From Eledone cirrhosa (taxonomy: Eukaryota), in the NCBI GenBank assembly GCA_964016885.1, contig OZ024742.1, forward strand, positions 276,210,001-276,274,000: DNA of 64,000 bases. The letters are read 5' to 3'. Positions 24,562 to 62,341 of the stretch are shown one piece after another. The position numbers and the translations under genes are program-made. Within the stretch, counting starts at the first letter, position 1, and each line of letters opens with the position of its first letter. The notes under the pieces were generated by a model. The model was not told where the DNA came from. It worked only from the letters and a program-made list of their open reading frames with translations, and made no database searches.

Positions 24562-24693
24562 TTACAGTTTAATTGTAGATTCTATGTCTATCTTGATTTT
24601 TCCTAATGTCTTTTTCACCCGAAGAGCTGTTAACCGTGCTGCGGGATGATGAAGCCAGCATTCACTCATTACTTTGGACATTTTACTCAAATA
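24562..24693 (-). CDS. BMPR1: BMPR1 last coding exon ([43 protein letters not shown])
   Basis: ttacag acceptor; NANDOR-box-like [11 protein letters not shown]; TAA at 24562-24564. Confidence 0.93.
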
Positions 24694-27600
24694 CTGTAAC
24701 AAAGAAAAAAATTAAAATACATTAATAAACATTTTAAAACCAAATTTACGCACACATACAATTTTTTTAAATAGAAATATGTATGTCTGTTGACAATAAA
24801 ACTGAGTGTGTGATCACCGTAAGAGATTCATAAATATGGATAATATGAACCTTGAGTAACATACCAGTATAAACTCCTCTCTACTGAATGCATATAAATC
24901 AAGTTAGAGTATTATATGCACAAACCTAATCTTTTTCTGAATCACAAACATCTATGGAACCAAAAGGTAACACTGATTTTTGTGAGAGACAAATACCCTA
25001 CTTGGATATGGCCACAGTTCCATTGAAGGTGACTTTTACATCACTGTACACTTCCACTCTACCTTCAATCCTTAGTAGTTATTTCTCACCATCGTTGTAC
25101 GTGCATCCCCTATTCATGCCTCACACTTAAGTAGTTACCCTCACATTGCTATATCACCCACCTCTAAAATCCTAATGCAATAGTCATAAAACAATAGCAG
25201 CTGCTATCCACAAACATTATTTGATGTCGACCCATCCTATCCTACTCATTGCCATGCCAAATCCCATCACACTTGTCATACACCATGATAACATATTTAT
25301 CGCCCTCTCTAGTGCTGGTGTCACGAAAAATGCACCCAGTACAATCTGTAAGGTAGCTGGCAATAGGAATGGCATCCCACTGCAGAAACAATTCCCAAAA
25401 GGTCGAGAGGATTCTTCAGTTGTGTTAACAGCACAACTTGTCTAATATTGGTTATCTACACAATAAACACACCCAGTACACACTGTAAAGTGGTTGGTGA
25501 TAGAAAGGGCATCCAGTCATAGAAGGCCAGCCAAATAAAGGGTCAGAAGGACACTTCAGTTGTGTCAAGGACATGACAACCTTCCTTGTGATGGTGCCAT
25601 GATAAAATGTATTCAGTAAAGTGCAGGAACGCATATAAGCAAGAAGTAGGGCCCCCACCCCAGCCTATCTTATAGCTCAGTAACTTCACTTGAGCACTGA
25701 CATGGTCTCTAAAGACCCATCTAATTATTGCTAGCAGGAAAGATGGCCACTAAATGATGGTGATGATGATGATGATGATATGCATGTCTGTAGACCTACC
25801 TATCTAATCCCCATCCTACACATGTGCACCTCCCTCACTCTCAGTCAAACTGTACAGTGGTCGTGTTGGTGACACAAAAAAGCACCTAATCTACACTGTA
25901 AAGTGGTCGTGCAGATGTCACAACAAAAGGCACCCAGACCACACTGTAAAGTGGTCGTGTTAGTGCCACGGTAAAAGGCACCCAGTCCACATTGTAAATG
26001 TGGTTGGCATTAGGAAGGGCATCCAGCCATAGAAACTACGCCAGATACAATTTTGTATGAGCAAGACATGGTCATCTGATTTGACTTGTCTCACAACTCG
26101 TCTAACCCATGTTAGCATGGAAAAAATGTACATTAAACTGTGCACGAGAAGGACGTGTTTTTTGCCTGCAGCATATCACAAAATCGGATTTTCATCTAAA
26201 GATACTGTTCCCATAACAACAACAAATGTATACGTTACATCATGGATTGCATAAGGGAAACGTTGAAATAATTATTATGAATAAACGATTTATGTAACAT
26301 CAGCATTTTTCTTAATGTTATTCATATATATATAAATGGAGAGAGAGAGAGAGAGAGAGAAGAATACTCACATGATCACTGACCCAGCGGTTAGGAATTA
26401 GAGGCCGTTTCTTCTCAATACACACAACCCTTTTAATATCTTCATAGCTGGGGTCAGGTGAGAGGTAATCATAATATGGAAGTTGAGCATCTTCAACAAT
26501 TCCTTGAGAAAAAAAAGATAAATATATAGATAAAAGAGATATACTTAATGCAGAGGAAGTGTATAGTTATGTGTTAGCTGAGATATATTGAATGAATGCA
26601 GGTGCATGGCCTGGTGGTTAGGGAATTGTCTCTACGATCATAATGTCATGGGTTCCCTGGACTGAGTGATGAGTTGTGTTCTTGAGCAAAACAATTACAT
26701 GTTGCTTCAATCAACTTAGCTGAAATTGAGTATTAACAGTAATTGAGTAATAACAGTAACTTGTGGATAAGTCTGAGATGGACCAGCATCCTGTACTCTC
26801 AGTTACTTAGTACGCAATGAGACCAAGATAAACTCCGAGTTGATGAGCCTCTGGGCCTGGGATAGACTTAAACTTAACATTTTTATGTGAAATGGAGTGG
26901 TAAATAGCTAAAGTGAAATAGTGTTCAGAAGACAACTCAGCTATGATTTGTAAGTACATGATCTTTGTTGTAGGTTACAGATAGAATTAAAAATTTGATC
27001 TCATTGTCAAGCAGGGAATATGTAAATGAGGTTGATAGATGTGCAGAATTCATACTACTAATACTGCAGCCAATGCTGGCAACAATAATGTATGGTACAT
27101 GGGTAATTAGTGAAATAACAAAATACAAGCCACAAAGCTTATGCTTCAGTTTATATTGTCTCCAATTAGTTCAGATTCACACTGCACGCTTCAATATGGA
27201 GTGGTTTATAAAATGCTGTTCCTCTGTGCATATCTCTGGTAGTAATTTTACTTAAAAACATAAACGATATTCACTCACAAGTGATCTGGGAGAAAAACTG
27301 AGTATAAGAGGAATTGAACGACAAGTAAGCTGAGTATACTCAGAATTAAATGTAGCATGCAAAAGAGATGATTGCACAGGTATTGTCATTTGATGCATAA
27401 GGAAAAAAAGAGTTGTATTAAAAAGGTGCAGAATGCTTGGAATTGATGGAACCTGTAAAAGAGGGAGAACAAGTAAGACATGGGTCAAAGTTGTGAAAAA
27501 TGACTTCAAGAAACTGAACCTCACAAAGAAGATAACACAGGCTCAAGCTGACTTTGGATGCATGTAACAACATCTCTAGTGCTGGTGCCATGATAAAATC

Positions 27601-30051
27601 CACCCAGTAGAGATTGTAAAGTGGTAGTGATGGTGCCACAAAAAACACACCCAGTAAGATGATTGTTGTTGTTAAGAAGGTTACCCAGCCACAGGAACCC
27701 TGCCAAATATGGAATATGTGATCAAAATGGTCAGTCCAATCCATTTAATAACCTGTTCAACCAATGCCAGTGTGGAAAGAGGATGTATGATGACGATGAC
27801 AGTAGTGGTGGTACTGAGGTTTATCCATCAAGTCATTGAAGTGATTTAATTCAATTTTAAGTGTGTAAACCCTCAATCAAACCAAGTTAATACTTTATTG
27901 TTTTGTATATTATCTCTCAAACATTATTTCTTTCAGATGCAAGAAGTAAAGAGGTGTAAATATTTATTGCCTCACCATTAGCACTAATAACACTGATACA
28001 ATATATAAATGCAAGATGTCACAGCTGAATATCTACTGCATTATCCATTAAGACAAGGTATTTCCATATAATACATCACTAAGAGTTAAAATTTAAGAAT
28101 TATACAATAAACTAACTGCTAATACACTGGCAGTATTGTTTTACTATGAGAATACACAAATGTTTTATACATAAACAGTAAACTAACTGCCTAATCTGAT
28201 AATACAACAAAAGAAACCTCTATCTATAAATATGCCATTGTAACAGACAGTCTACAAGCTTGTTTTGATGTGACCCATTTTTGCTTTTGTTTGTTTATAG
28301 ATCACGCATATACAATTATAGCTAAAACCCTTTAAACAAATAATTGTTTCTACTTTAGGCACAAGGCCAGCAATTACCCAGTGCATTACTGGTACTTTAT
28401 TTTATCAACCCCGTAAGGATGAAAGGCAAAGTCAACCTCGGCGGGATTTGAACTCAGATCGTAAAGGGATCTGAGTTCAAATCCCACCGAATGTGAATTA
28501 GCTGGTATTCACTGGTAAAAGAACAATTAAAAACTGTTCAAACTGTCCATTTGGAATTGAATTACACATCTGTTGTATGTATACCAAAGAAGGGCTATAT
28601 TATTTTATTGAAGCAGGGTAAAAGGTAGGCCACTTCACAACAATACATCAAGTATTCCTTATTATGTTTTTAGTTTGCTTGTCTTTACTATTTTCCATCC
28701 ACTTCTCCATTCAAGTATAGGTGGGATGATTTTCTTTATAAACTGGGACAGTTACATACTGCTAGAGCTATTATTTTTCGATCTGAATGCCCTTTCTACT
28801 AGCAACTATTTAAGCATGAAGAACAGGTGGAATAGATTAAGTCAGCAGAGTTACGTCCTTTGCCATTTTTTTTAAATTTAATTTCTTTCATTGAAGTGCT
28901 TCAGCTGAAAGAAAAATATTTATGCTCTGTATCCCAATAAGAAATGGGTGATAAGTCTAATGCCAGGTTTACTATATACTTTGATCTATGTATGATATCA
29001 TTTGAAACACTCTTCTAAGGAACAGATTTAGTCTGGTTAAGATGTTCACTTTGCAACCATGTGATTCTGGGTTCAATTTCACTTGAGTCTCTTTCTACCG
29101 TAGACTCAGATTGACTAATCAATGACTTGCAAGACAGTATCTGCATGGCAAAAGATATATGCATTATTGATAAAAGCAGTACAACATACAGATTGCCAAT
29201 AAAATACCTATGTCACTCTTACTAACAGAAATGCAGCGAACCAGTCCTTAGCCCATTGGAAACATTATAGCCTACAAAAAAATGCTTGATGTATATAAAA
29301 AATGTACAGAAAGTAAAAAAAAAATCTTTGTTATTCCTCCAGCTTAATGAAATAAGCTAGTGTCATTAATCAATTTTGTTGCTAAAACATCTAAAATATA
29401 TGGTCTGAAAAACAGATCAATCTAACAGAGCATATATACAAGCTACTAACTATAGTGGATAAGGTATTGAACTACCAGAAGATAAATCATGAATATAAGC
29501 TAACTGTAGATGCTTCATTCTGTGTCTGTGAATCAGAACCCAATTTTCTACACTGCTACTGTTTAAACAGATTCTGGAAATAGGTAACCAGATCAACTAA
29601 GAATGTTGTAATTGGAGATGGTTGTTTCTGAAAGGACCTGCTGGAAGGTGTACTTGAGGACTCTTTCCTCACGACCCACCACCAAGCAGACAATGACGAC
29701 CACAACCCTAGAAATGCTAGATCTGATGTTTTCTAGAGATAAACACATACACACGACATAGCTGACAAAAATGAGGAGGAAAACAGGAAAAGGAAAATGA
29801 AAGAAAACCATGGTTATATATAACTTCTAGAAAAAGTACAATATATAAGCAATACCTTTATGAACACACCGACGTGCAATTTCCCATAGAACTAAACCAA
29901 GGGCATACACATCTGCTTGTTTGAACGATTCAAAATGTTTCCTATTTATAGTGTCATCCAATATTTCTGGGCTCATATACAATTTGGTACCCTGTCGAGA
30001 ATTTGGTGCAATATCCACTTCATTAGTTTCACTGCAAAAGAAAACAAAAGA

Positions 30052-30088
<37 letters not shown>

Positions 30089-33000
30089 AACACACATAAA
30101 TATAAGTAAAAAGATAGACTATCAGCAAAAATTAGAGTTAGGTTTCTATAAGGTACATAACTCTATTTGTTAAGTTGACAAGTTCCACAAAAATTTATGC
30201 CCATTACCCAAATTTAAAAAAGCAATTCTACAAATGCTGATATGGTTGGCAAAAAGGTTAGTAGCCTTCTCACTCCCTTAAATAATAATAAAGCGTTTTT
30301 TCTAAAATTAATCATTTTAAATCAATTATACATGCATTGTGATATGCTTTTTTTTTTTTGTTTCCACCAGTCCCCATTCTCCCAAATTCTGAACACTAGC
30401 ATGTGTTGGAGCAAGTATTTGTACGGCTAAATTATCTAGCTACAGCTATCAAGCAAACTATGCATCACTAAAACATGTCAAGAGCAGTCACCATGCTGCT
30501 AAAGAACAGACACTGCATTTCATGTCTAATAACTTTTAATTTATTAAAATTTGGGAGTTATCTCCCCTTGTCGCCATGACTAGAATTAGTCATTTAGATT
30601 AAATGCACTGGGTAATTACTGGCCTTGTGCCTAAAGTAGAAACAATTATTTTAAGTGTAATTTTAATTAAATTTTTTTGGAATAGTTGTTACTTCCCTTT
30701 TAGGTGGACAGACAGTGCCTAACAAATCATTGTGTATATAAAAAATGTGATGTAACAGTATAACATTAGAGTTATGGCCCTTTACTTTCTGAGTTCAAAT
30801 CCCGCTGAGGTTAACTTTGCCTTTCATCCTAACGGGGTCGATAAAATAAAGCACCGGTAACGTACTGGGATAATTGCTGGCCTTGTGCGAAAAGTAAAAA
30901 CAATTATTTATAAATGTAGTGTGAATTAGGAGAAATACTATAACATTATTTATCAATAAATACTAGCAGGATTCATGAAAATTCCACATTATATAAATTT
31001 TCTTATTTCTATTTTGATGCAAAAATTTATGGATCTACATAGCACAAATTCAATATGTTAAAGAATTAGATTTTGTTCCATATTCAAGGTTTAAAGCACA
31101 ACACTTGGACTCATAAATGCAGAATAGTATTATAGATAAAGACTCTCTATTCTTTTTCACCTTCTTTGCCCACTTATTCCTGCGAGAGTTGTGGGGGCAG
31201 AGTCCCTCAAGCACACCTGCCAGTGTGTTGTGACAGAAGCAATCAGATCCCCAAGCAAGACCAGCTAAGTTCATGGATGTCATCCAACCATCTTGCTCAT
31301 GGTCTACCCTTGGGTCTCCTGGTGGTTAGTTTTGCCTGTAATTCTTTCTTTAGACATTCTCACCAATATACTAATTCTCTAATTTATTTAGCAGATTAAA
31401 ATTCAGGGAACATAACTGCAATTTATTTTAAACAAAGGCATTAAAGTTGATAGCTATATTTTCATTAACAATTTCAGATGCATTAAGAGAATGAGTATCT
31501 AATCTAATGCTAGTAAAGATACTTGACATATATTTTCAGTTAACATCGTTTTTAGTATCTGCAAATATAATAAACAAGCAGAGATTACAATCCAAGTGAC
31601 AAAATTATTATGAGGGAGGAATAAGAAAATTTATAAACAAATTATATATTTCCCTGCCAATTTTTCATTAAATTCCCAAGTTTATGTTGGTTTTTCAGAT
31701 TTTGGTGGAAAGTCTTTATACAGCCATACATCTTGATAGAACAGCTAAATCTCCATCAAATAACACACTAGAGTATTTTTTAAATTAAATGATACATAGG
31801 ATATTCTAGTCATAAATATACCATATTTGAAAAATGACATAATGATCAAGAGAAGAATACCTAATTTTGATTCAAAGCTGACATGGTACTAAGCAATAAT
31901 ACAAACCAGGTGTATCCACACAAAATTTGTTATTTTTATCAGTAATGTAATACTGCTATAATTATAATTGGCACAATTGAATCAACAAAACTTTTAAAAA
32001 AAGCTGTTTACCTATATGATCACAGAAATATTAGAATCAGCTGGTAGACCACTATCTTAATCATTAACCACCCTTTCATAGCTACAGGTATTTCACAAAA
32101 GAGAATTGCCTCTGGTTGGTTGAGTGAAATTTGGTAGGCAAAAATGCAGAAAACCATTGTGTGTGCATGTATGTGTGTATGTAGGTGTACTCCCAATAAT
32201 GTCTGTGTTTATGGGTCAGCCCTTTTTCAGGCATCCATTTTGAAATGTCTGACAGAGACTTAGAAATCAAGTCCCATGGGAAGAGACAAGTTAATCAGAA
32301 AATTCCTTTTTTTTTTTTTTTTTTAAAGAATCAAAGCAAAGCAACACTATAAATTTACTGTGTACATAGAGGAAGTGAGAATGGATACACTTTGGCGATG
32401 GTAAGTTTTGTATAGATAAGTGTGTATATGTCCTATTGCTCTTGAGTATATCAAGTCCCATATGAGGGAGGGGAAAAATAGATGTTAAGAAGAGAGTATC
32501 GGTATGTATGGTAATTATTAAGGTGGGTGTAGTACTTCTATCAGGGTAGACAGTGTATATATATATATATATGTATATATATGTGTATATACATATGTGT
32601 GGGTGGGGGAGAAAACAATGAAAAACACTGGAGAACAATATAACGATGAGATATATCAGTTTAATGCTTGATACAGTGGGAAAAGAATCCTTGTTTCAGA
32701 TGTTATTGGAAGACAGAATGAGAGAGAGAAGAAATAGAAAGCTACACAAGAATAAGAATAGAAAGAAAAAAAGAAAATGAATTTTCATGTGAAATTAGTC
32801 AGCTATTTTGGATACACACACACACACACATTAGGTGAAACATAATTACTATACCTAATATATTTGACACAAAGCCCAAGGTCTGCTATACAACATGTAA
32901 GGTTCTTCTTCACCAAAATATTCTTACTTTTTATGTCTCGATGGGCTAATGCAGGTTTACCTTGAAGAGAATGGAGTTAATAGTGTATCAATAACAATAC

Positions 33001-36000
33001 CAAGACAAGCAATAACAGAAGCAGAAGGAAAATAGTAATGAATTAACAAGTTAGTAACATATAAAATTATTATCCCTCCCATCTAATACAGGCTGATACA
33101 GGTAAAGAGTCTTCTCAATCCTTTTGGCATGGTTTCTACAGCAAGATGCCCTTCCTATCACCACCACAGGGTGCACTTACCTTACACTAAAATAATAATA
33201 ATAAAGTCGTAGCAGTACCAATAATAGTTGGAGCTTTAGGAACAGTAAGTAAAGATCTTGATATGTACATTTCACAAATAGGGGTTGCAATATGATAACA
33301 GCTATGTATGATTACAGATAGGGGTTGCAATATGATAACAACTATGTATGATTACAAATGACAGCACTGCTTGGAACAGCTATAATACTCCAGAGGGTAC
33401 TTGACAACATAATACACCTCTGGTATTAGAAGATGAACAAAGAAAACAATAATAATACTAATAGAGTCATCAAAGAAAATTTAAAAAAATGAATAAGTAC
33501 TCACCTTTTGCTCCATATATTTCTGCATGAAGGAATGCAAGACCTGCTACCGTTGAGTGTGCTAAACGCATCATGTCAACAGCATGCAATGTGTTTGCTC
33601 TAAGGAAATCATATAGAGACCCATGATCATGGTAGTCTGTTATGAGATATAGCTGTGTACCTTTGATATCAGCAGCTAGAAAACCTGAAAGACAAAACAG
33701 AAAAGAAATTATCTTACTTCTAATCTAAACCACTAGCTACACTACATAACAAAGCTGGCAAATCTGTGGTGTGTGCACCCAACATGGCCCATGGAAACCT
33801 TTTTATTGGCATGCAGGAGACATACAACTTAGCTATTTAACGGCAAACTATAATTTATCAGCTTTCATCTCAAGAATGGATACATTGACTCTCTGATACA
33901 TTGCTTCAAGATGAAAAATAAAGAAAGTAAATATGTTCTTCAGTAAAAAGTAATCATCTTGCTCTAAATGACAATATCTGTATTACTTAAATTTCTCAGT
34001 ATTTTTTGCAAGACTACTGTAAAGAGAAAGGTGTACAGACAACAGAAGCATCTCCAGTATATGAAAGACCACCACCACCACCACTATATAATGGTTATTT
34101 CCCATGCTTGCATGGGTTAGACTTATTTTTATCAATTTATGAGATGAATGTCAAAATCAAAACTAGCATTAATTGAATGCAGAAACACAAGGCATCAAGT
34201 TTAAAATTTTGCCATATCTATTCAGGTATTTTACTGTTTACAGTAACACGAAAATGATATATTATTAATGATTAATTCTCCATTTACAATATTTATTTAC
34301 TTCATATTACAATTTGTGAATGTTGTCAGTTAAAGGTTTCCAATGGTCAATCAGTTTCCCTGTATTTCTGATGGTGAAAGTGACAAGTTAGCATTTACAA
34401 TTCAATATAAAATAAATATGCAATCACACACACACTTGATAGGCTTCAGTTCAATTTCCAACTACCATATTCCTATCACAAGTTATTAGTCAACTCAATG
34501 TTAAGGCTGAAGTCATTTCCTCAAGGCACCACATGGTGGGATTGAACTTGGAACAGCATGGTTGTGAAAGGAATCTCTTAACTGCAGTCATATCTGCACC
34601 CTTTATTAATATAATGTCTGTGAAATACTATCTTTGTAATAATTAGATTTGCAGTCTTACAACATATTTTCTTTAAAATATTCACATAAAATTAAATTTT
34701 ATGCAGCTATTATTATAATACAAATAATTAATAAAATCCCAAACTATATATTAGTATTTTGCAAGCATACATTTCATATTACAAGCATACATACAAGTGA
34801 GTGATAGGAAAACATTTTCCTTCTATGCATGTGACCAGTGCCACGATGAAGTTCTTTCCTCCGGCTCACTCTGTCCAGCATTGCCATGTGAAGTTCCCTT
34901 GCTTCCAATCCAATGTGATCATCTTCAACGACATCTTTCAGTATGACGTTTGATCGCTCAACTCGTTTGCATATATTTGGTTTCCAGAGAAGAACTCTGC
35001 CAGCAAGTTCATTGTAATAATTCACATGTCCAGCTCATGCAAACCTCCGTCACTTTATAATGTCAGAAATGTTAGGAACCTTCTACATACTATTAACTAG
35101 ATTTATTTGTATTTCATTTTCTGGTTCTATGTTTCAGTGTCTTAAAATTATCTTACAGCTCTTTATTTCTACATATGTACATATATCTTGCCTAAATTTG
35201 ATAGGAGTTTGATTATTTCTATTATTAAATAGCACATTAAATGATGATGATGATGATGATGATGATGATAAGAGTGGGGTAAGATATCTGAAGAAATCAT
35301 GAAAAATAAAGTTCATTTTCTGAAAAACAATATTCAGTTTCCAAAAATATAATCCCAAAATTAGATTTAAAAAGAAAAGAAAACCCTGACTTTTTCAACT
35401 GATATTGTTTTAACAGTGTAAAGAATATTTTATTGGCTCGTTTTCTTCAACTTTCCATCACTTACAAGCGTGTATGCAGTACATGGCTAGATTTATATTT
35501 TAGAAAATTACGGAGAGATGTTTAAGTCTTCCAAACTACTAATATAATTTTTTTTATTTTTTTGTATTTATAATGATGCATTGTTCATCATCTCGACAAA
35601 CACTTCTAAGGGAAATAACTCAATCAAATCAACTGATAATTAAGTAAACGAAAAATGAGTCACTTGAAATTGGAGTAGAACTTAGAGAACAGTCGTCTCC
35701 AAATGACATTAACTCTTCGAAGTGTTTGGGGCATCGAAAACAGCCATCCTCAATCACTTGCATGCAATAATGAAGGTGTCCAATCTGCACCAATGGGTAC
35801 TCCACGCTCTGATTGCCCATAATCATGAATATCAAGCAGTAGCTGTGACTTCTCTGCTCTCCTACCATCACACAACCAACTGGATACATTCAATTGTCAT
35901 TGGTAACGAAAAATGGTGTCTCTACATTAATGTCAAGTGCAAGCAATCGTGGGTTGATAAAGAGTGTGGCACAATGGCAAGCAAAGGCTGGCCTTCACTT

Positions 36001-36600: not shown

Positions 36601-39600
36601 GAAGTGTGTCAGAAAAGTTCCAGGACTGATGTCACAAAAGATTTATTTCAAACCCAAACTTCACACTAAGAGTTTTCTTTTTCAAAGTAATCCCCCTGGA
36701 GTATGTAACTGTAATCTTAGCTCTTTGCAGCGATCAAACTTTTTTCTTCATAATTTTATATACATGTCCTGACGCTGATAAGAAGGTAGCTTGGAAGTGT
36801 CACTATAAAAGGCTACTAAATGAGGAGAATAAATGGGAGAAAGACAGTCTCCCCCACATCGATCCAATAGAGGGACCAGCAGTGTTAGTCGAAGGTAGTA
36901 TAAGGCAATCAAAGATATGAAGACGGGTAAGGCGGCTGGGCCTTCGGAAATAGTTGCTGAAATGCTGAAAGCTTCTGGAACGGTGGGACACACCATGGTC
37001 ACTCGGATAGTAAACCAAGTCATACAGAATGGGGTTGTTCCGAAGGACTGGCGTAGCAGCATCATCATTAACTGTTACAAGGGTAAAGGAGATGCCCTAG
37101 ATAGAGGTAACTATAGAGGCATTAAATTAATCGACCAGGTCATGAAGGTCACAGAAAAAGTAATAGCGCAACTAATCAGAGAGCGAATTGATCTAGATGA
37201 AATGCAGTTTGGGTTTGTGTCAGGTAAAAGTACCACAGACACTCTTTTCATTGTACGACAACTACAGGAGAAGTACCAAGCTAAAAGTAAACCCCTATAC
37301 TTAGCTTTTGTCGACTTGGAGAAAGCCTTTGACAGAGTCCCCCGTTCCATTAACTGGTGGGCTCTTAGAAAACTAGGTGTTGATGAATGGCTTGTGAGAG
37401 CTATACAAGCCATGTATAAAGAAACAGTCAGCAAGGTTAGAATTAACAACGAATATAGTGAAGAGTTTAGCGTAAAAGTTGGTGTTCATCAGGGCTCCAT
37501 TCTTAGCCCCCTACTATTTATTATTGCCCTTCAGGCTATAACAGTGGAGTTCAAGACCGGCTGCCCATGGGAACTCTTATACGCAGATGATCTAACACTC
37601 ATAGCTGAATAAATGGCCGAACTAGAGAAGAAATTCCAAACATGGAAGCATGGCCTAGAATCAAAAGGCCTTAAAATTAACCTGTCTAAGACTAAAGTTC
37701 TAGTTTGTAGGAAGGAAAATAGGGCACCGGTCCCATCCGGGAAATGGCCATGCTCAGTGTGTAGGAAAGGAGTAGGTAGAAACTCCATTTTATGTCCCAA
37801 ATGCAAAGAATGGGTGCATAAAAGATGTAGTGGGATCACAGGTAAGCTAACAAAGAGCATAGATTTTATATGTGGCCGGTGCTCTGGTGCAATAAGTAGC
37901 AGCAAGTGCCCAGATACTAGCTCATTCCATTGCACAGATGGTTCTATAGAAATAATGGACAGCTTCCATTACCTGGGTGACAAAATCAGCAGTGGGGGAG
38001 GGTGCTCTAAAAGTACAGTAGCTAGAGTCAGAACTGGATGGAAAAAGTTCAGAGAGCTTATATCACTATTAGCCGCTAAAGGGTTCTCTCTAAAAATGAA
38101 AGGCAGGCTGTATGATGCCTGCATATGAACAGCAATGTTACATGGCAGTGAGACCTGGGCATTGTGTGCAGAGGATATACGCAGACTGGAGAGGAACGAA
38201 GCTTGCATGCTCCGCTGGATGTGTAATAGTAATATACGTGAACAGCAAAGCATAAACGAACTAAGGGAAAAATTAGAAATAAGAGGGATCAGATGTTGTT
38301 TACTCGAGAGAAGACTACGTTGGTATGGTCACGTGATGCGCATGAAAGACGACTGCTGTATAAAAAAGTGCAGGGCAATAAAAATAGGCGGTAGCCACGG
38401 AGTAGGCAGACCCAGAAAAACCTGGGACGACTTGATAAATTGCGACCTCACACACTTACACCTCTCCAAGACAATGTCACTGGACCGAGATCTTTGGCAC
38501 TACACAGTAATACAGAAGACCCGCCTTACCTAAGTACAAAGTGAAACCTCATCACTCGTCGACTACTGTCGAGATGATGGATCTCACTCTCATGCCCCAG
38601 AATCCCCTGTCCCCCCCATCGCTGCTGATTCCCGTATCCCTAGAGATAACATCAGGGAATGGCAGCTTCCTACTCCTAGTCAGGCTGGAGTCAGGGTTCC
38701 AGAGCAAGAGAGCGGATATGATTTCATTGCTGGCACGGTGACAGTGGCCAGCAAATTGAGCTCTCCGGGATTTTAGAAGGGCAGAGGCTCGAGGGAGTTT
38801 GCCATAGATTTTAGACAAGGTGGGATGTCATTTCCAGTCAGTAGGCACCTCTAACAAAAATACACCCCCCGTCCCACTACCCCCACCCCATCCACACCAC
38901 CCCTTTCAATGTAAAGTTATGTTGGTACCACAACATCCAGTCCAAAACAAATGAGGTCGTGTAGGTGTCACGACAAAAAAACACACACTCCACGCTGTAA
39001 TGTGGCCGTGTAGGTGTCACGACAAAAAAAACACACACTCCACGGTGTAATGTGGCCGTGTAGGTAACACGGTACAAACCTCCCAGACCACACTGTAAAT
39101 GTGGTTGGTGTTAGGAAGGGCATCCAGCCGTAGAAAACCCACCAGACAGTCCTATGCGAGCAAGACAACCACTCTTGCCTCAAGTGGGAAACTCCCGTCC
39201 AAACCCATGCAAGCATGGAATATGGACGTTAAACGATGATGATGATGATGATGATGTCCTCTGTTTCAGGTCGTCAAGCAATGAGCACAGAGCAACGAAC
39301 AAACTCGAAGTTTCTGGTACGGTTGGGGAAAACTCCGTCAGAATCACTGGGATTGCTGCAGCAAGTGTATGGAGATGAGATGATGTCACGCTCACATGTT
39401 TTTGAGTGGTACAAGAGGTTTAAAGAAGGACACGAGGACGTGGAAGATGACCCCAGGAGCGGAAGACCCTCAACAACCAGGACTGAGTCAACTTTGAGCG
39501 CATCAGGCAGATGGTGCATAGCGATCGTCGGCTGACTGTTCGACTGATGGCAAATGAGCTGGGCATGAATCAGGACAGCACCTGGAAGATTCTCACTGAA

Positions 39601-42201: not shown

Positions 42202-43625
42202 GGTAGAAATCCCATTTCATATATTTGTCCGCGTGCCCGAATGAAGGACCAGTTTTAAAAGTGTCTCCTCCAATACACAGTGGTGGCCAGAACTGGACCC
42301 TGAAACTAATGATAGCATATACATGTTAAGTGTATGAAACTTTGTTTATACTGTGTGTGTGTGTGTGTGTGTGTGCATATACAAAAGGCAAACAGAAATA
42401 ACAAAGCAGACGACACAATACAATGGTGAAATATATTAGTTTTATGCTTGATAGTGTGTGTGTGTGTGTGTGTGTGTGTTGCGTGCATGCACTAAAAGTT
42501 GTTTGTTTTCCTTACCTAATATATTATCATGTCTAAGCAGCACTGTTTGGTAAAGTTCAGTTTCTCTGAACCAACTATCTTCTTCTGTAGTAAAAAATAT
42601 CTTCACTGCAACATTTTCACCTCTCCACTTGCCTTTCCATACCTCACCATACCGGCCTTTTCCTATACTCTTAATCAAATATATTTGCTTAGCTATTGTG
42701 CGCTGAACCTAGAAAATGAAGGAAAAGGCATTTATCCAGGAAGTTTTTATAAAAATGATCAGTGATTATCAATTCATTTGTTGTTGATATTGTTTTTTTT
42801 TTATTTTCGTTCTCGGTTTGAAATTTTTCATGAGGTTTTTATAAACCAAAGTAAGCTGTTTTATTATAAAATAAAACAAAAAAAACAACGGTAATTTAAA
42901 CTTAAAGAGATACTACGAAAATTAGCAATGATGAGAATTTTCTTTTCTTTTTCTCTTTGTAGTTTTTAAATTTCAATTTGATATTTTTTAATGAATTAAA
43001 ATTGCTAGGTAGTGAATTCTATCATAATTGCATTCACATCTGGGATAATTTATAGGAATAATAAATATACCCTAGTACTTGTACTTGATAGATATTTCGT
43101 TTATTTTATTGATGGAAGAATAAAAACAATGTTGAATTCAGAACATAAAGGCCATAACTAAATACTGCAAGGCATTTTACATGATGCTCTAATGATTCTC
43201 TCTCTCTCGGGTAATCAAACTGTGTGTACATTTTGGGGGGGATACCCTCTGTCCGTGTGTGTTTGTGTGTGTGTGCATGCACACACGTATGTAATCATCT
43301 CTGTTTAATGTCTATTTTCCATGCTTGCATGAGTTAGCTGGCTGTCACTACATGCTATAGCCAAACCTGTCAAGTGACTAGGTCCTGCTCACATGCTTTA
43401 TTTTGGATTGGTTTCTATGGCTGGATGCCTTTCCTAACACCAAACAGATATCATCATCATGATTTTATATATATGCTTTTAAGCAGAAATTTAGATTTAT
43501 ACTCAAAAGTCAATAAAAATGCACACACATATAAATAAGTGCAGGCATGTGTGCACATACACACTCACAAATAAGTGTGCATGCACACATACATACAAAT
43601 AAGCATGCATGCACACCCACACCCA

Positions 43626-49600: not shown

Positions 49601-52600
49601 ATCTATTCTCCATGCTTGCATGAGTTACATGGGCTGTCATGATGCTAGGTGAATCAGATGACCACATCTTTCTCATACAATCTATTATTGACTTAGTTTT
49701 CTATGGATGGATGCCCTTCCTAATGTCAATCACATTTCAATGTGAAGTGGGAACATTTTTCATGGCCCCAGCATTATCATCTTACAATTATTATTATTTC
49801 CTTTGATTAGTAACAAGGCCTTAGAATTTCTGTGTAGTATGAAGGGAAGATATGACATATGTGCTTCTACAAGTTATATTTAGTGTTGTACGTGAAGTAA
49901 AATGGTTTCAACCAGGATTGAGATCATGTCACAGCAGCAGCAATTTTAACTCACCAAAAGTGGTAATCCTGATCCACTGCCAGAACTGTGGTTTATTAAG
50001 TCTTTAATACATTCTCCAGGATGTATTTGACTTTCTTCTTCCATATATTCAGATCTTAATAACCCTGTTCGACAAAATCTGAAATAAATTTTGAAAAGGA
50101 TTTGAAAAAAGGAAACAGGATAACCAACTTAATATATTTATGAAAAAAAAATGTTTTCAAACTACAATATAAGTTAAACAATTATTATTAACTGTGTTAA
50201 ATAGAAACTATATTTGTTCAACAAAATTAGTGGTTAATGGCATATTGGTGGCTGGTCAAACACTCGGTAAAGGGCACATTTGAAGACTGCCATGGGTGGC
50301 ACACACTCAAGCTGTGCTACTCAAGCAGTCTAGTCCATCATGGTAAAGTAAAGTGTCATTAAATCCTAGGTGTGTTTTGCTCATTTTAAACCTCAGGAAG
50401 AAAAACAAAGAGAGAAAAAGAGGAAAATTTTACCCTATACTGAACTGGTACATTATATACCTCAAAAGGATGAAAAGTGAAGTTTGAACTCAGAGTGCAG
50501 TGAGCCAAAACAAATATTATTAATCTAGTGCTCTAACAACTCTGCCAAATTGCCACCTTAGAGTTCATCATAATGATGGTTAAATTGTGTATGGAAGGCA
50601 GGATTTATTATTTTTATTTTGCTGTTCAGTACGTTTTGGTATAATCAAAAGCATTTGTAATGGCTCGGGAAGCAGGCAATGATGACTTAGTATACATTTC
50701 AGTTCCTTGGAGATTTATAAATAATTAATCCATTGTAATTTTATGTAAGAACCTTTGTTATATGATGTTCCAAATACCAGTTTAATAATGAGGAAGTTGG
50801 TTATATTACTAAATTCCTCCATATCCTCAATTATTTTCAAAATGATTTAGTTTGGGTTATCTGCCCTCTGAGTTTAAATCCCACTAAGATCAACTATCAG
50901 GGTCAATAGGATCAACTATCAGTCCAGGATAGTTGATTGGCAGAATTATTAAAGCATTGGATGTGATGGCTTGTGATATCTCATTCAGCCCTTTGTGTTT
51001 CAAGCTCCCCTGCAATGTTACTGCTAAGCTGTTTTGACCTTTATCATTCTCTTGGACTACATTGCAGACAGAAAGAGGGGTGACTGCATGTATTGGCACA
51101 TGTTGGTCTTACATGAAAAACCAAGCTCAGGCCTCACCTTAGGCAAGAACTTTCCAAGTGAAGATCCATGGTCTCACGAGACAAACAAAGGACTGAGATT
51201 AGTTGGCAACATAGCCCAGAGTTTGGATTTAATCCTTTAGCATTTAAACTGACCATATCCGTCTAGTATTCTCTTGCCCCTTTCTGTTTAAACCAGCTGC
51301 TCATACTTATGTTTAGGTATTGTTCTCAAAATAAAAAATATCAAAATCACACAGATTCGATATTATGTGAGATAAAGTGTTTACCATCAAAATACAATAG
51401 TAAATATAGAGTAATGTGAATGCTAAAGAGTTAAAACAACAAACAGTAGCAGCTAATTTAATATTCTAAGCATTTTTTTTTTTAAATCTGAATGAGGTGG
51501 AAAATTTGATGGTAGTAATATTATTAATGGTGTGTGTGTGCGCGTGTGTGTGTGGAGAGGGGAGTGTGTGGTATATGTAGATAGTTTAGCAGTCAGTTTG
51601 CAAGGTCTAAGTGGCTCAAGCAGACAGGCAGCAACTGGTATTTAAGTGAATGTATTGGTTTAGCCCCAGTTTTTAGTTTATGTGGTTGTTCTGATAAGTC
51701 TAACTATCTCAGTTTTCACACTTGATAGTCACAAATGAGATAATGTCTGTCAAGTGGAGTCATTGAAGTTCAAGATGACAAGGAAAATGCACTCATATTT
51801 TTAAGTAGAAAGAGAACAGATAAAACAGGTTATAAAAAACCAAATTCATAATAGAAATCAAAACAAATAAAGAACTCTGAGAAACTATATTTATATCTAT
51901 ATTTTTAACTGTTGGTCAATCAATGATAAACATTGATTGCCAGATGAATTAATTATAAAAATATTTTATAAATATATATATATATATATACACAGTAGTT
52001 TTATTTTTTAAGATATATTTATCAAACTTGGGTCAGTTTGTCTTCATGACTTGTTCTTTCGATCTCACTCGATAAACCCGCCATTGGCTTTGATGACAGC
52101 CTCAAGGCGGCCTCGGAACCAGCTACAGGCCTTCGTCACTGTCCCCCGACTTAGGCCCCTAAAGGCACTTGTGATCCTGGCCTTCAGATCGTCTTTCATA
52201 TTGCAGCTAGATCTGATGGTGTCTCATTCCACTGCGGCCCACACAAAGAAGTCGAGGGGGTTGCAGTCAGGCGAGCCGGGAGGCCAGATATCAGGTGAAG
52301 TGTGGTCGACGAAGTTCTCTGACAGCCAGGCTTGGGTCTTTCGGCTGGTATGGCAGGGCGCTGAGTCTTGCTGCCACACGTACGGCCTACCTGCAGCTAC
52401 CCGGTCGATCCAGGGCTTTACTACCTCGCTCAGAATGCGGATATAGCCATCGGTGTTCAGCTTGAGGCCCTCAGGGAAGAAGTGAAGTGGCATTACGTCA
52501 CCTTGACTGTTGACAACACCTAAGACCAATGTTGTCGCTGGAAATTTGTCTGCATGACTCTGGGCACGTCTTTGGATGAGACAGCGAGCCACCTGTTGTT

Positions 52601-59800: not shown

Positions 59801-62341
59801 TTTGCCATTATTTATTTACAAATGACCATGCTAAATAAATACAGATATAATGCATTGATTGTTATAAAGTTTACACCTTGTACAGTAAAACTGAACACTA
59901 TTGTCAGGTGACATACACACATCTATATATATATAGACACCACATGACATTCACATCACAATGAAGAATGTTTCATATGCAGTGTCTGCAAACTAAGCAC
60001 AAATACCATCAATCCACAATAAAAATAATAATACTAATTAACTAATAAATAAAAAATATATCACATTGCTTATAAATTCTGTTATCAATGATAATTACAT
60101 TAGACTGACCAAGAAATACAGCTGGATGAATTAAGAACAAGATATGTTTTCAAGCTTATCTTCTATCAATCCCAAACTAACATACTTATCTTATTCCTTC
60201 AAAGAAAAGCTCCACACATTTTGGGAGCCAGTCCAATAAAGTCACATCACATATGTATAGACATAACAGAATAAAAGGTCATGATTGCATTGAATTAAAA
60301 TATACACAAGTTTCTTCAAACTGCAGGAGAGAGAAACTGAAGTGTGACAGTAAAAAATAGTATTTTGAATGCTCCACATGAAATTTGCAACATAAAGGTA
60401 AGAATGGGGTAAACAGCTGTTGTTATTGTACAACCTTTCAACAAAAGACTTGCAGCTGCTAATACCATAGGTGCTCCTTAAGTATCATGTGGTGAGCCTA
60501 ACATCTCTATTGCTATTTCAAAAGATGTCAATTAACAATATATCCCTCCCACAACAATCCCTCTAACACATTGTTGATAATGGCTTCTAAATACAGTGTT
60601 TACATGTGTGTACGCATGTGTGCTTGTGTACAAATTATAGAGACATTTTATATCATGAAAATAAAATGTTTTGGTCATAGTTTGTTAATCCACATGTTGA
60701 AAGGAACATTGTTTCCTGCATTAATAAGTGTCCATGTCACATATTTCACATTTCCTCTAGTTGTTGTTATATTTAGCAAACCCAGTAATTTACATGGAAT
60801 AAGGAAAGAGGGAAATATAAATATACACTTCCCTAATAAAGTCAAACTGATATAAAAAACATCCAGCTGGCTTAATCCTTTCATGACAATACTTCTAATG
60901 CCTCACCATTATCATCGCAGTCTAACTTCTATTTTCCATGCTTGCCTTGGTTTGATCAGATAGCACATGTTGAAGCTCAACTAGTCAGGTGACCACGTCC
61001 TGTTCGTATGATCCATTTTGGCATGGTTTCTACAGCTGGATGCCCTTCCTAATGCCAACTACTTTACAGCATGTAGTGGGAATAGTTTATCATGGCACTA
61101 GCACTACCACCTTACATGGTGGACTGACTGCTTTTCATCATAGCACCAGCGCTGCCACTTTACAAATCAGGCAGGGTGCATTTTATTACGGCACCAGCAC
61201 TACTACCTCATTACAACATTAGGGTGCTCAGTGTCCTTCGTCAATCTTGGAGGGAATTGATGTATGTGTGTGCGGTGGGGTTATCGATAGATATCCTATT
61301 CTTTATCCACAGGTGATTAAACTACTATTCATGTGCATTTGGCACAATTAGTGAAGATATGAAATAACTAGTTCATCATATTTGATACAATTAGTAAGTT
61401 ATTGTTTTTATATCTATTTTTCCATGCTGGCATGGGTTGAATGAAGCCAGAAGCTTATTCTATTTTTATGGGCATTAAGTGACTGTATACTGAGAGTATA
61501 AGACTAAACAGGGTGCCAGTCTGTTTCAGGGCTAACCCCTAGTTGCTGCTGCTGACCCTCATTTTCAGCTGACTGGACTGGGGCAATGTGAAATGAAGTG
61601 CCTTTTTCAAGAACACAATGTATTACTCAGTCTAGGAATAAACTAACTATGCCCCACATCTTCACTTTCATGCAATGATCCACAGTAATCTCCTGAAGCA
61701 GAGCCACTTCATACAAAGACCAACTTCTGATCCCATTGCAAAACAATTTTTACAACAGGTGAAATGGGTTTCATTGAAGTTATTTTTGCATATAGATAGA
61801 CTACACTAAATAAAGGGGTACAGCAATTCATGAACTAAATCCAGCATCATATTAATCAAGTGATTACAACTCTACATTCAACATAAATACTTATTTTATA
61901 AAAGTAAATTAATCTAGGGAATATCTAGATTCTTTTTTTTCGTTTTTGCTATATGTTTTCCAGCAATCTGTTTCTGTAGCTGCATGGTGCTCCTACTATT
62001 ACCTATATAATTGTGAAGTAAAAGCACATCTGAAAGACACAATACAACTGCTGCTGCAAAGTTCAGACTTTATACTAGCACCATATACTATGCCATATAG
62101 TCACTATACATTACAAAAAAAAATTAAAGAAAAAAGAAAATATAAAAATTTGTAGATAAATCTTTGCTAAAGAAATTTCATTATTAAATCTTAATTGAAA
62201 ATTGACAAAAACAAAGCCAATAAATAACTTACCTTTGATGACCCCAGTGCATTGCTATAATCAACAATATTACACAAAATAAGAGTGAAACTGCAACAAC
62301 AATTTTACAGGTATTGTTAAAGCTGGTATCAGTTTGAGGAC
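24562..62341 (-). CDS. BMPR1: BMP type I receptor Ser/Thr kinase (BMPR1/ALK3-6/Tkv class), 5'-partial, spliced: join complement(62233-62341, 49955-50078, 42516-42708, 33505-33684, 32855-32960, 29856-30031, 26372-26502, 24562-24693)
   Basis: Eight exons with GT..AG boundaries and matching phases translate to TM helix, GS box [52 protein letters not shown] (ALK3/6-type), [12 protein letters not shown], and [11 protein letters not shown] followed by a stop. Ectodomain exons were not found in the window. Confidence 0.93.
25840..26140 (+). mobile_element. RTE 3'-UTR-derived repeat (short LINE tail/SINE-like)
   Basis: cacactgtaaagtggtcgtg tandem units plus ggttggcattaggaagggcatccagccatagaaa, as in the RTE 3' UTR. 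Similar pieces lie at about 23330-23440, 25300-25530, 27570-27800, 43300-43450, 49340-49780, 57805-58080 and 60905-61220. Confidence 0.75.
26372..26502 (-). CDS. BMPR1: BMPR1 exon: subdomain X ([44 protein letters not shown])
   Basis: ttctcaag acceptor, gtgag donor, 131 nt. Confidence 0.93.
26600..26870 (+). mobile_element. tRNA-derived SINE of a second family
   Basis: A-box-like tggcctggtggttagg, then ttgtgttcttgagcaaaaca..., with reverse copies at about 58095-58180 and 61555-61640. Confidence 0.5.
27280..27560 (+). mobile_element. Decayed RTE C-terminal fragment
   Basis: Remnants of EKLSIRGI / [21 protein letters not shown], parallel to the RTE C-terminus. Confidence 0.6.
28342..28490 (-). 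mobile_element. 5'-truncated tRNA-SINE ending in a snap-back hairpin (28438-28490)
   Basis: Reverse complement of the 59181 family; 23-nt arms tcggcgggatttgaactcagatc / gatctgagttcaaatcccaccga. Confidence 0.75.
29856..30031 (-). CDS. BMPR1: BMPR1 exon: activation segment to subdomain IX ([25 protein letters not shown]...[20 protein letters not shown])
   Basis: ttgcag acceptor, gtattg donor, 176 nt; within ORF 29827..30093. Confidence 0.94.
30770..30910 (+). mobile_element. tRNA-derived SINE, 5'-truncated
   Basis: Near-identical to 59246-59375 (ctgagttcaaatcccgctgaggttaactttgcctttcatcct...). Confidence 0.8.
31165..31350 (-). mobile_element. LINE (RTE-like) 3' end fragment
   Basis: Remnant RPKGRP.ARWLDDI on the minus strand. 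Confidence 0.5.
32855..32960 (-). CDS. BMPR1: BMPR1 exon: catalytic loop and DLG ([35 protein letters not shown])
   Basis: tcttcaag acceptor, gtatag donor, 106 nt. Confidence 0.94.
33204..33460 (+). mobile_element. R4/Dong-like LINE 3' fragment with an internal 40-bp tandem duplication
   Basis: [19 protein letters not shown]...[16 protein letters not shown] remnants, (TAA)n on both sides, duplication at about 33274-33356. Confidence 0.7.
33505..33684 (-). CDS. BMPR1: BMPR1 exon: kinase subdomains IV-VIa ([28 protein letters not shown]...[12 protein letters not shown]), with shortened L45 loop
   Basis: tttcag acceptor, gtgag donor, 180 nt, in frame with both neighbouring exons. Confidence 0.93.
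34830..35090 (-). mobile_element. RTE-like LINE C-terminal fragment (second family)
   Basis: [22 protein letters not shown] remnants, similar to the insert at 38550-38832. Confidence 0.55.
35430..36531 (+). mobile_element. Decayed mariner transposon
   Basis: [17 protein letters not shown] and later HD / PTDYHLF remnants. Right TIR-like end aaacggcaagaacttgctgtccaacttaaTA; the left end is uncertain. Confidence 0.8.
36771..39253 (+). mobile_element. 5'-truncated RTE LINE copy (RT + PHD finger + 3' UTR + (GAT)n tail) with in-frame stops
   Basis: ORFs 36917-37612, 37613-38128 and 38135-38533 closely match the 53664-56807 protein. ATGTCCT target-site duplication at 36764-36770 and 39254-39260. 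Confidence 0.93.
38550..38832 (-). mobile_element. 3' fragment of a second RTE-like family inserted in the RTE 3' UTR
   Basis: [31 protein letters not shown]. The segment is absent at the equivalent position of the full-length copy (about 53630-53660). Confidence 0.8.
40420..41470 (-). mobile_element. Decayed RTE-clade LINE, endonuclease region
   Basis: [18 protein letters not shown] near 41390-41445, VVQVYAPN and later APE remnants; shares sequence with 7245-7300. Confidence 0.7.
41665..42090. repeat. Imperfect inverted repeat (about 41665-41823 vs 41954-42090), MITE-like
   Basis: ttttctcagacctg...tacttgcc..tagctacatcattg..agctaacagtgtca is mirrored on the right arm. Confidence 0.75.
42516..42708 (-). 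CDS. BMPR1: BMPR1 exon: kinase N-lobe (VQRTIAKQI...[11 protein letters not shown]...[32 protein letters not shown])
   Basis: ttctag acceptor, gtaag donor, 193 nt; overlaps ORF 42442..42678. Confidence 0.95.
45520..46752 (+). mobile_element. Old, internally deleted RTE copy
   Basis: [30 protein letters not shown] and ERRLHWYGH remnants with a (GAT)n tail; the sequence jumps from GVHQ to the C-terminus. Confidence 0.85.
47390..49275 (+). mobile_element. R4/Dong-clade non-LTR retrotransposon (RT + CCHC + REL endonuclease), 5'-truncated and decayed
   Basis: [62 protein letters not shown] and VIVGAL; ends in a (TAA)n run. Confidence 0.85.
49955..50078 (-). CDS. BMPR1: BMPR1 exon: juxtamembrane/GS domain ([42 protein letters not shown])
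   Basis: tttcag acceptor, gtgag donor, 124 nt, canonical GS box. Confidence 0.93.
51233..51430. mobile_element. piggyBac-type MITE
   Basis: TTAA|tcctttagcatt ... aatgctaaagag|TTAA. Confidence 0.6.
52050..53241 (-). mobile_element. maT/DD37D-like Tc1/mariner transposon; 5' TIR present, 3' TIR not seen
   Basis: ORF 52224-53111 has [18 protein letters not shown] and [16 protein letters not shown]. The end tagggtgtggacgatattt resembles the TIR of the element at 2024-3280. Confidence 0.88.
53269..56807 (-). mobile_element. Near-full-length RTE LINE with an uninterrupted ORF (APE endonuclease + RT + PHD finger), 3' UTR and (GAT)n tail
   Basis: More than 1040 codons are open, ending at 53664. Motifs: [57 protein letters not shown]. 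Flanked on both sides by (TA)n. Confidence 0.96.
58880..59057. mobile_element. hAT-like MITE (decayed)
   Basis: cagggatggattaa ... ttaatctgaccttg imperfect TIRs, with the subterminal motif tgctta(a/g)ggcttcaa repeated. Confidence 0.45.
59181..59375 (+). mobile_element. tRNA-derived SINE, near complete
   Basis: A-box-like tggcagtatcgg, B-box gagttcaaatcc, central domain gcctttcatccttacggggtcgataaaataaagtaccag, and multiple copies in the window. Confidence 0.8.
62233..62341 (-). CDS. BMPR1: BMPR1 exon: transmembrane segment ([36 protein letters not shown])
   Basis: tttcag acceptor, gtaag donor, 109 nt. Hydrophobic run; phase 2 end joins the next exon in frame. Confidence 0.8.

Follow-up and report, generated by a model that had tools for sequence, protein, structure and literature searches.

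The only ALK3/6-type (BMPR1/Thickveins) receptor gene that we found in the genome of Eledone cirrhosa encodes a kinase whose L45 loop is four residues short. The change is real, transcribed, common to octopods, and located in the textbook specificity element of a single-copy receptor. Pairing of L45 with the L3 loop of the Smads is the standard explanation for how BMP and TGF-beta signaling are kept apart, and the length of the loop is nearly fixed across animals. The gene occupies the minus strand of the window, by which we mean the whole stretch of 64,000 nucleotides analyzed (contig OZ024742.1, positions 276,210,001 to 276,274,000), where 33673-33653 reads gct gat atc aaa ggt aca cag (ADIKGTQ). 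Our preferred explanation, held tentatively and with slightly less than even confidence, is that this sole BMPR1, with its old and common deletion of the L45 tip, acts as a ligand-catching partner, and that an intact ALK1/2 would phosphorylate Smad1/5.

Gene structure and the shortened loop

Seven coding exons, running from 50078 down to 24562 on the minus strand, join in frame to give 346 amino acids and a stop codon, with AG at every acceptor and GT at six of six internal donors. The spliced product differs from the O. vulgaris/O. sinensis protein (P0002) at 6 of 346 positions. In-frame splicing defines, all on the minus strand, a juxtamembrane and GS-box exon (49955..50078), a kinase N-lobe exon with the motifs AKQI, GKGRYG, VAVK, RETE and LRHDNIL (42516..42708), the exon spanning beta4, L45, beta5, the hinge and the next helices (33505..33684), a C-lobe exon (QLPYYD, DPSYED and RPLIPNRW; 26372..26502) and a final coding exon (ECW to RLTALRVKK, stop TAA; 24562..24693). 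Splicing and alignment together define the catalytic-loop exon (32855..32960, minus strand), in which the motif is followed by LC in place of LA (DLGLC versus DLGLA), and the activation-segment exon (29856..30031, minus strand), whose P+1 loop reads GTKLY in place of GTKRY (Leu382 in P0002 numbering). A profile search of the window combined with genome matches placed the transmembrane exon at 62233..62341 on the minus strand, and three exons for the signal peptide and ectodomain were located by searching the animal's own genome upstream, beyond the window (G000:C3, about 276276128-268, 276287127-360 and 276375298-405). These exons encode a Cys-rich type I ectodomain and a single transmembrane helix; PF01064 was detected on P0002, and a GS box with SGSGSG and an LP motif is present. 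Motif matches also mark intronic fragments at about 36800-38200 and 45800 on the plus strand and 54000-56200 and 52200-52300 on the minus strand, which resemble LINE reverse transcriptase and mariner-type transposase. A short, very high-copy repeat at 33120-33165, in the intron downstream of the L45 exon, is deep in all four sequencing runs examined.

The L45 exon is 180 nt long, phase 1-1, with AG/GT ends, and reads ADIKGTQL, the L codon occupying 33652-33650 (minus strand) directly after ADIKGTQ, where ALK3/6 receptors carry ADIKGTGSWTQL; the preliminary description of an in-frame exon with intact splice sites was therefore accurate, although it gave no strand. The shortened region (33653..33673, minus strand), defined by reading frame, alignment and structural model, has only four residues in place of the eight-residue loop I[KR]GTGSWT. 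Relative to human BMPR1B (PDB 3mdy) this is the sole gap in the kinase domain, and the missing residues can be placed between 33656 and 33655 (as GSWT) or just as well between 33659 and 33658 (as TGSW). Three (I, G and T) of the four loop residues that separate BMPR1B from ALK5 are retained, as is the Asp equivalent to ALK1 D263. No intron lies at the deletion point: the ALK3/6 intron precedes beta4, and the octopus ALK4/5/7 gene has one within L45. Intron sliding was rejected as the origin of the gap on the position of the ALK3/6 intron, and the repeat shared at the Thr codons, between which slippage had been proposed, would amount to only about one codon.

An artefactual origin, whether assembly error, rare allele, alternative exon or pseudogene, is practically refuted. 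The same gap recurs in four named species whose assemblies are independent, being common to P0001 (O. bimaculoides), P0002 (O. vulgaris/O. sinensis), and P0121 and P0122 (Argonauta hians), and it is found again in P0003, a relative with 80% identity and 512 residues that probably derives from transcripts because its 27 contigs are no longer than 2972 nt. Sequencing-run contigs were examined for 4 of the 23 listed runs over 32840-33760, a stretch that stops before the upstream splice joint, and in Logan contigs, which omit rare variants; all four runs are free of indels in the exon and GSWT appears in none. Contigs from X4, X8 and X18 are spliced over the 544-nt downstream intron, join the exon to the next one and contain the exon without a gap. 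X4, which has the same species label, shows 0 differences in its exon contig, X8 and X18 carry other species labels, and X5 is a genomic contig with gaps confined to the intron. Transcription of the receptor is read from the splicing of these contigs, as no listed run is recorded as RNA. When the two flanking introns were scanned for motifs, one irrelevant match came up, and searching the window with a profile returned only the eight known exons, so neither uncovered a second beta4-beta5 exon in the introns or the rest of the window, and the canonical-loop pattern has 0 matches in the genome. An alternative exon or micro-exon was rejected on these scans and on the absence of an intron at the deletion point. 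The open frame, intact splice sites and catalytic residues likewise confirm that the gene, with its GS box and DLG intact, is not a pseudogene. The O. bimaculoides RefSeq model (P0001) contains neither the GS-box exon nor the last exon, probably through a gene-model or assembly fault.

Shortening of this kind is rare. Among 391 receptor proteins compared, 7 were without coverage of the region, and of the remaining 384 the loop spacing is that of BMPR1B in 341, longer in 30 and shorter in 13. Apart from the 5 cephalopod records, the tsetse protein P0291 alone has lost four residues; the other short ones are P0266 and P0161 (minus three, the gap of P0161 lying upstream of a loop that is complete), three at minus one, and two (minus 5 and minus 12) that resemble gene-model errors. 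Every one of the 52 non-cephalopod ALK3/6 proteins has the T, G and W that are lost here, and the S is 92% conserved. P0291 (Glossina brevipalpis, UniRef A0A1A9WJF2) resembles the window protein in lacking four loop residues but, unlike it, is without a GS box, and P0266, from a 10-member cluster, is three residues short and, again unlike it, carries HCD for HRD and PNPR for GTKR. These two proteins, thickveins-like by a reading of sequence and not by tree placement, deviate in 16-18 of the 104 conserved columns, versus 4 in the window protein.

The tree described below places P0003 as sister to Octopus plus Argonauta and, with the gap common to all, indicates that the deletion is older than the Octopus/Argonauta split. 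The 120 listed of 2381 matches include no named ortholog from squid, cuttlefish or Nautilus, and the 120 listed of 202 short proteins include none above 70% identity. In metagenome contigs the deletion pattern had 0 matches, and 6 loci were detected by scanning with the protein; the 5 of these that cover the loop have it at full length.

A single ALK3/6 ortholog and its partners in the genome

Searching the animal's own genome with the L45 exon gave 8 candidates and 4 matches, and with P0002 gave 47 candidates and 30 matches. These resolve into three type I receptor genes, namely ALK3/6 (C3), ALK4/5/7 (C7) and ALK1/2 (C15), the remaining matches being type II receptors and unrelated kinases. 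The best PDB sequence match of the window protein is BMPR1B 3mdy (E 1e-157). In a quick tree search of 59 selected kinase rows, the window protein falls within a 32-row ALK3/6 clade (SH-aLRT 98) and its spiralian subclade (99), inside a cephalopod clade of four rows with support 100 and a stem of 0.28; the C15 gene groups with ALK1/2-type rows and the C7 gene with ALK4/5/7-type rows (99 each). The ALK3/6-class identity first proposed thus holds for an intact, transcribed receptor with a shortened L45. The description of the gene as a paralog does not, as sequence comparison identifies it as the only ALK3/6 ortholog found, beside one ALK1/2 and one ALK4/5/7. No second, canonical ALK3/6 gene appeared among the 8 and 47 scored candidates or by loop pattern, and a hidden canonical paralog was rejected accordingly. 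Because the eight-residue loop is missing, we file the gene as an ortholog by descent and not as a canonical L45-bearing receptor.

Nine matches represent the Smads, as one Smad1/5, one Smad2/3, one Smad4 and one Smad6/7-like gene, the last label resting on a reading of sequence. The L3 region of Smad1/5 equals human SMAD1 letter for letter and its C-terminus is SSVS, with a few differences from SMAD1 in the first MH2 exon. The suggestion that the receptor had co-evolved with a divergent Smad consequently fails at L3, and co-evolution there was rejected. The octopus ALK1/2 is intact, with the loop DMTSRNSCTQ, the commonest ALK1/2 loop among the matches. The 13 TGF-beta family matches include BMP2/4-like and BMP5-8-like ligands, labels taken from reading the sequences and not from a tree. 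An intact ALK1/2 and both ligand classes, which a co-receptor would need, are therefore present in the genome.

Several further features of these genes were observed. The ALK4/5/7 L45 (L045/L046, G000:C7, about 93640800-93642820) reads ADNKDDGTWTQ across its intron, with Asp for the ALK5 Asn. An intron-less piece of a BMPR2-like type II kinase (L020, G000:C1:120050694-120051038) contains two stops and matches exons of the gene on C8; it is likely a processed pseudogene. Near-identical BMP5-8-like mature-domain exons lie on C21 (L050) and C1589 (L051), one of the two being on a small contig, and represent either a haplotype duplicate or a recent duplication. A tandem repeat before the Smad6/7-like MH2 exon (L035, G000:C7:10678986-10679480) keeps one frame open for 3733 codons, and Smad4-like exons lie about 240 kb from it on the same contig.

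State of the kinase

The catalytic K (VAVK), E, HRD-K-N and DLG are all present, together with the kinase fold. An AlphaFold2 model of P0002 built on a 146-row alignment, which replaced an earlier 56-row fold with a low-confidence N-lobe, has a mean pLDDT of 88.4 and values of 95-98 over residues 261-290. In this model beta4 (271-277) and beta5 (280-286) are joined by a two-residue turn, G278-T279, and 297 of 301 residues superpose on ALK5 at 0.9 A (Z 45.5). The kinase is thus predicted to fold normally, with a two-residue turn replacing the protruding loop.

Sequence conservation is an argument for a continuing role of the domain. Octopus and Argonauta are 96.8% identical over the GS box and kinase and 90.7% over the ectodomain. 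Of the listed differences from X18 in the L45 exon, 6 are synonymous and 1 is non-synonymous, with omega about 0.05 and a binomial p of 0.0009; this count leaves out an eighth difference in the X18 contig. The exon is under purifying selection. Pan-type-I columns are changed at 4 of 104 positions in the window protein versus 3 in the octopus ALK1/2, and full-loop oyster ALK3/6 proteins deviate at as many ALK3/6 conserved columns (13-15 versus 14-17). General decay of the kinase was rejected on the GS-box and kinase identity, the 6:1 synonymous excess and the small number of changed columns.

The substrate side of the kinase has nonetheless changed. The P+1 Arg, found in 330 of 336 parsed proteins, is Leu in the window protein, Octopus and Argonauta, none of which has the canonical GTKRY loop; P0003 keeps the Arg (STKRY) but carries G379S and G226A at columns invariant in 52 others. 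ALK1 K229, D263, D330 and D348 (PMC10419700) map at offsets of 12, 12, 8 and 8, and since an offset of 8 also holds at the C-terminus, residue 382 corresponds to ALK1 R374. The ALK1 variant R374Q lowers pSmad1 and BRE-luciferase in a case report with cell assays (PMC10600850).

Functional readings of the deletion

L45 is reported to pair with Smad L3 and so to set specificity (PMC6953019, PMC2150897, PMC3341346, PMC10073696, PMC10376983, PMC11063908). The loss of a near-constant loop in the sole ortholog, with L3 unchanged and with separate changes of the substrate loop in two lineages, suggests a relaxed need to engage Smad1/5, and loss of direct Smad docking by the receptor is plausible. In the mechanism that we propose, the clipped hairpin would reach the Smad L3 surface poorly, a BMP2/4:BMP5-8 dimer would bring the window receptor and ALK1/2 together, and ALK1/2 would supply most Smad1/5 phosphorylation, while the kinase domain would be retained because it helps to assemble the complex or phosphorylates a different substrate, for example the GS box of the partner. 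A similar role as ligand-binding partner, with Smad phosphorylation by Acvr1, is described for zebrafish Bmpr1 in Bmp2/7 heterodimer complexes, where kinase-dead or GS-mutant Bmpr1 rescues Bmpr1 loss and the Acvr1 kinase is essential (Tajer et al. 2021, PMC8054026). Zebrafish Bmpr1 has a normal loop, whereas the octopod division of labor would, by this analogy, be fixed in sequence. TGFBR1 is also reported to activate ACVR1, which then phosphorylates SMAD1/5 (Ramachandran et al. 2018, PMC5832415); that relay is described there for ALK5 with a normal L45 and not for ALK3/6, but a type I kinase able to activate ACVR1 could explain why the kinase is retained. A stricter version, in which a Smad-blind sole ALK3/6 activates ALK1/2 through its kinase, ALK1/2 alone phosphorylates Smad1/5 and the arrangement is hard-wired in cephalopods, strikes us as unlikely.

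The co-receptor reading is favored by the rarity of the shortening beside an unchanged Smad1/5 L3 and an intact ALK1/2 loop, by the loss of the P+1 Arg, which would be further wear on the substrate side, by the decayed signaling motifs of the short-loop proteins P0291 and P0266, by the reduced signaling of ALK1 L45 point variants (PMC10419700), and by an ectodomain in which 14 of 14 conserved columns are kept, with both ligand classes available. Against it, the kinase is not decaying broadly and the GS box and kinase are more conserved than the ectodomain, the I, G, T and D263-equivalent Asp remain, full-loop oyster proteins deviate as much, P0003 keeps its P+1 Arg, and the short-loop precedents are distant and number two. 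The zebrafish result, moreover, comes from one tissue context, and Tkv serves as the principal Mad kinase in Drosophila. The zebrafish authors themselves regard Bmpr1 as a capable kinase elsewhere (PMC8054026).

In the main alternative, serious though still doubtful, the short loop continues to dock Smad1/5 and the protein is an ordinary, perhaps weaker, BMP kinase using I-K-G-T and the phosphorylated GS box. This alternative is favored by the gene being the sole ortholog, by catalytic residues that are all intact in a fold predicted to be undisturbed, by strong purifying selection, and by retention of three of the four BMP-type loop residues with the D263-equivalent Asp. Receptor-Smad pairing also has some slack, as Drosophila Babo is reported to phosphorylate Mad (PMC3341346), and L45 is described as an insertion peculiar to the family, part of which is disordered in ALK2 crystals (PMC3481300, PMC7911104), so that its tip, disordered in the ALK2 crystal (PMC7911104), may be tolerant of change. 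Modeled receptor-Smad complexes were reportedly insensitive to receptor variants (PMC10419700). Continued docking has to contend, however, with a loop length kept in 341 of 384 proteins, with the invariance of the lost T, G and W in 52 of 52, with the lack of a compensating change in the Smad1/5 L3, and with the additional loss of the P+1 Arg in Octopus and Argonauta.

Complete uncoupling from Smads, the receptor either signaling through non-Smad routes only (p38/JNK) or acting as a decoy that dampens the BMP signal carried by ALK1/2, is improbable. An intact kinase with a clipped L45 is what such a receptor would look like, and L45-mutant ALK5 keeps MAPK output. Overexpressed zebrafish Bmpr1 is dominant-negative (PMC8054026), but the octopod gene is not a spare paralog, nothing in our data points to MAPK output, and the decoy or dominant-negative role raised in the preliminary description is disfavored, given that the gene is the sole ortholog found and its kinase is strongly conserved. 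BMP2 is reported to bind Acvr1 poorly (PMC8054026), and a BMP2/4-like ligand would therefore lose its high-affinity receptor without a cooperating ALK3/6; yet cuttlefish limbs are patterned by BMP signaling, including Bmp2/4 (PMC6581508), which would count against a decoy if cuttlefish share the deletion. We regard as more improbable again a shift of partner, in which the receptor would escape the inhibitory Smad6/7 or discriminate less strictly between Smad1/5 and Smad2/3. In favor of such a shift, L45 possibly touches inhibitory Smads as well (PMC2150897), the genome has a Smad6/7-like gene and the kinase is conserved as if active. The L45 substitutions described in PMC10419700 reduce signaling, however, and the zebrafish study places Smad6 preference at residues near the ATP site, which are not known to belong to L45 (PMC8054026).

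Should the receptor in fact still phosphorylate Smad1/5, the L45 tip would be dispensable for docking and I-K-G-T would be a minimal determinant; should it not, octopods would be a natural and permanent version of the zebrafish result in which ALK2 phosphorylates the Smad. Either outcome is informative, as a lineage has deleted half of L45 in its only ALK3/6 gene and left the Smad L3 unchanged, and the answer would affect what to expect of BMP drugs and activated-receptor tools in cephalopod embryos. If P0003 comes from a squid or cuttlefish, the deletion would be common to all coleoids and would predate the BMP patterning of arms and suckers. Titles and opening parts of abstracts on molluscan or cephalopod receptors and L45 contained no report of this deletion, and databases label the gapped proteins simply BMPR1B or BMPR1B-like.

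Compared with BMPR1A/BMPR1B (ALK3/ALK6) and Drosophila Thickveins, the window protein is alike in ectodomain, transmembrane helix, GS box, LP motif and catalytic residues, and differs in an L45 four residues shorter, in the P+1 Leu that it shares with Octopus and Argonauta, and in DLGLC for DLGLA. BAMBI decoy pseudoreceptors have a type I-like ectodomain and no kinase domain; the window protein shares the former but has a complete and conserved kinase, and a pseudokinase or BAMBI-like decoy was rejected because the kinase domain and all catalytic residues are present. P0266 and its cluster members P0392-P0400 are probably transcribed and form a candidate pseudokinase receptor family.
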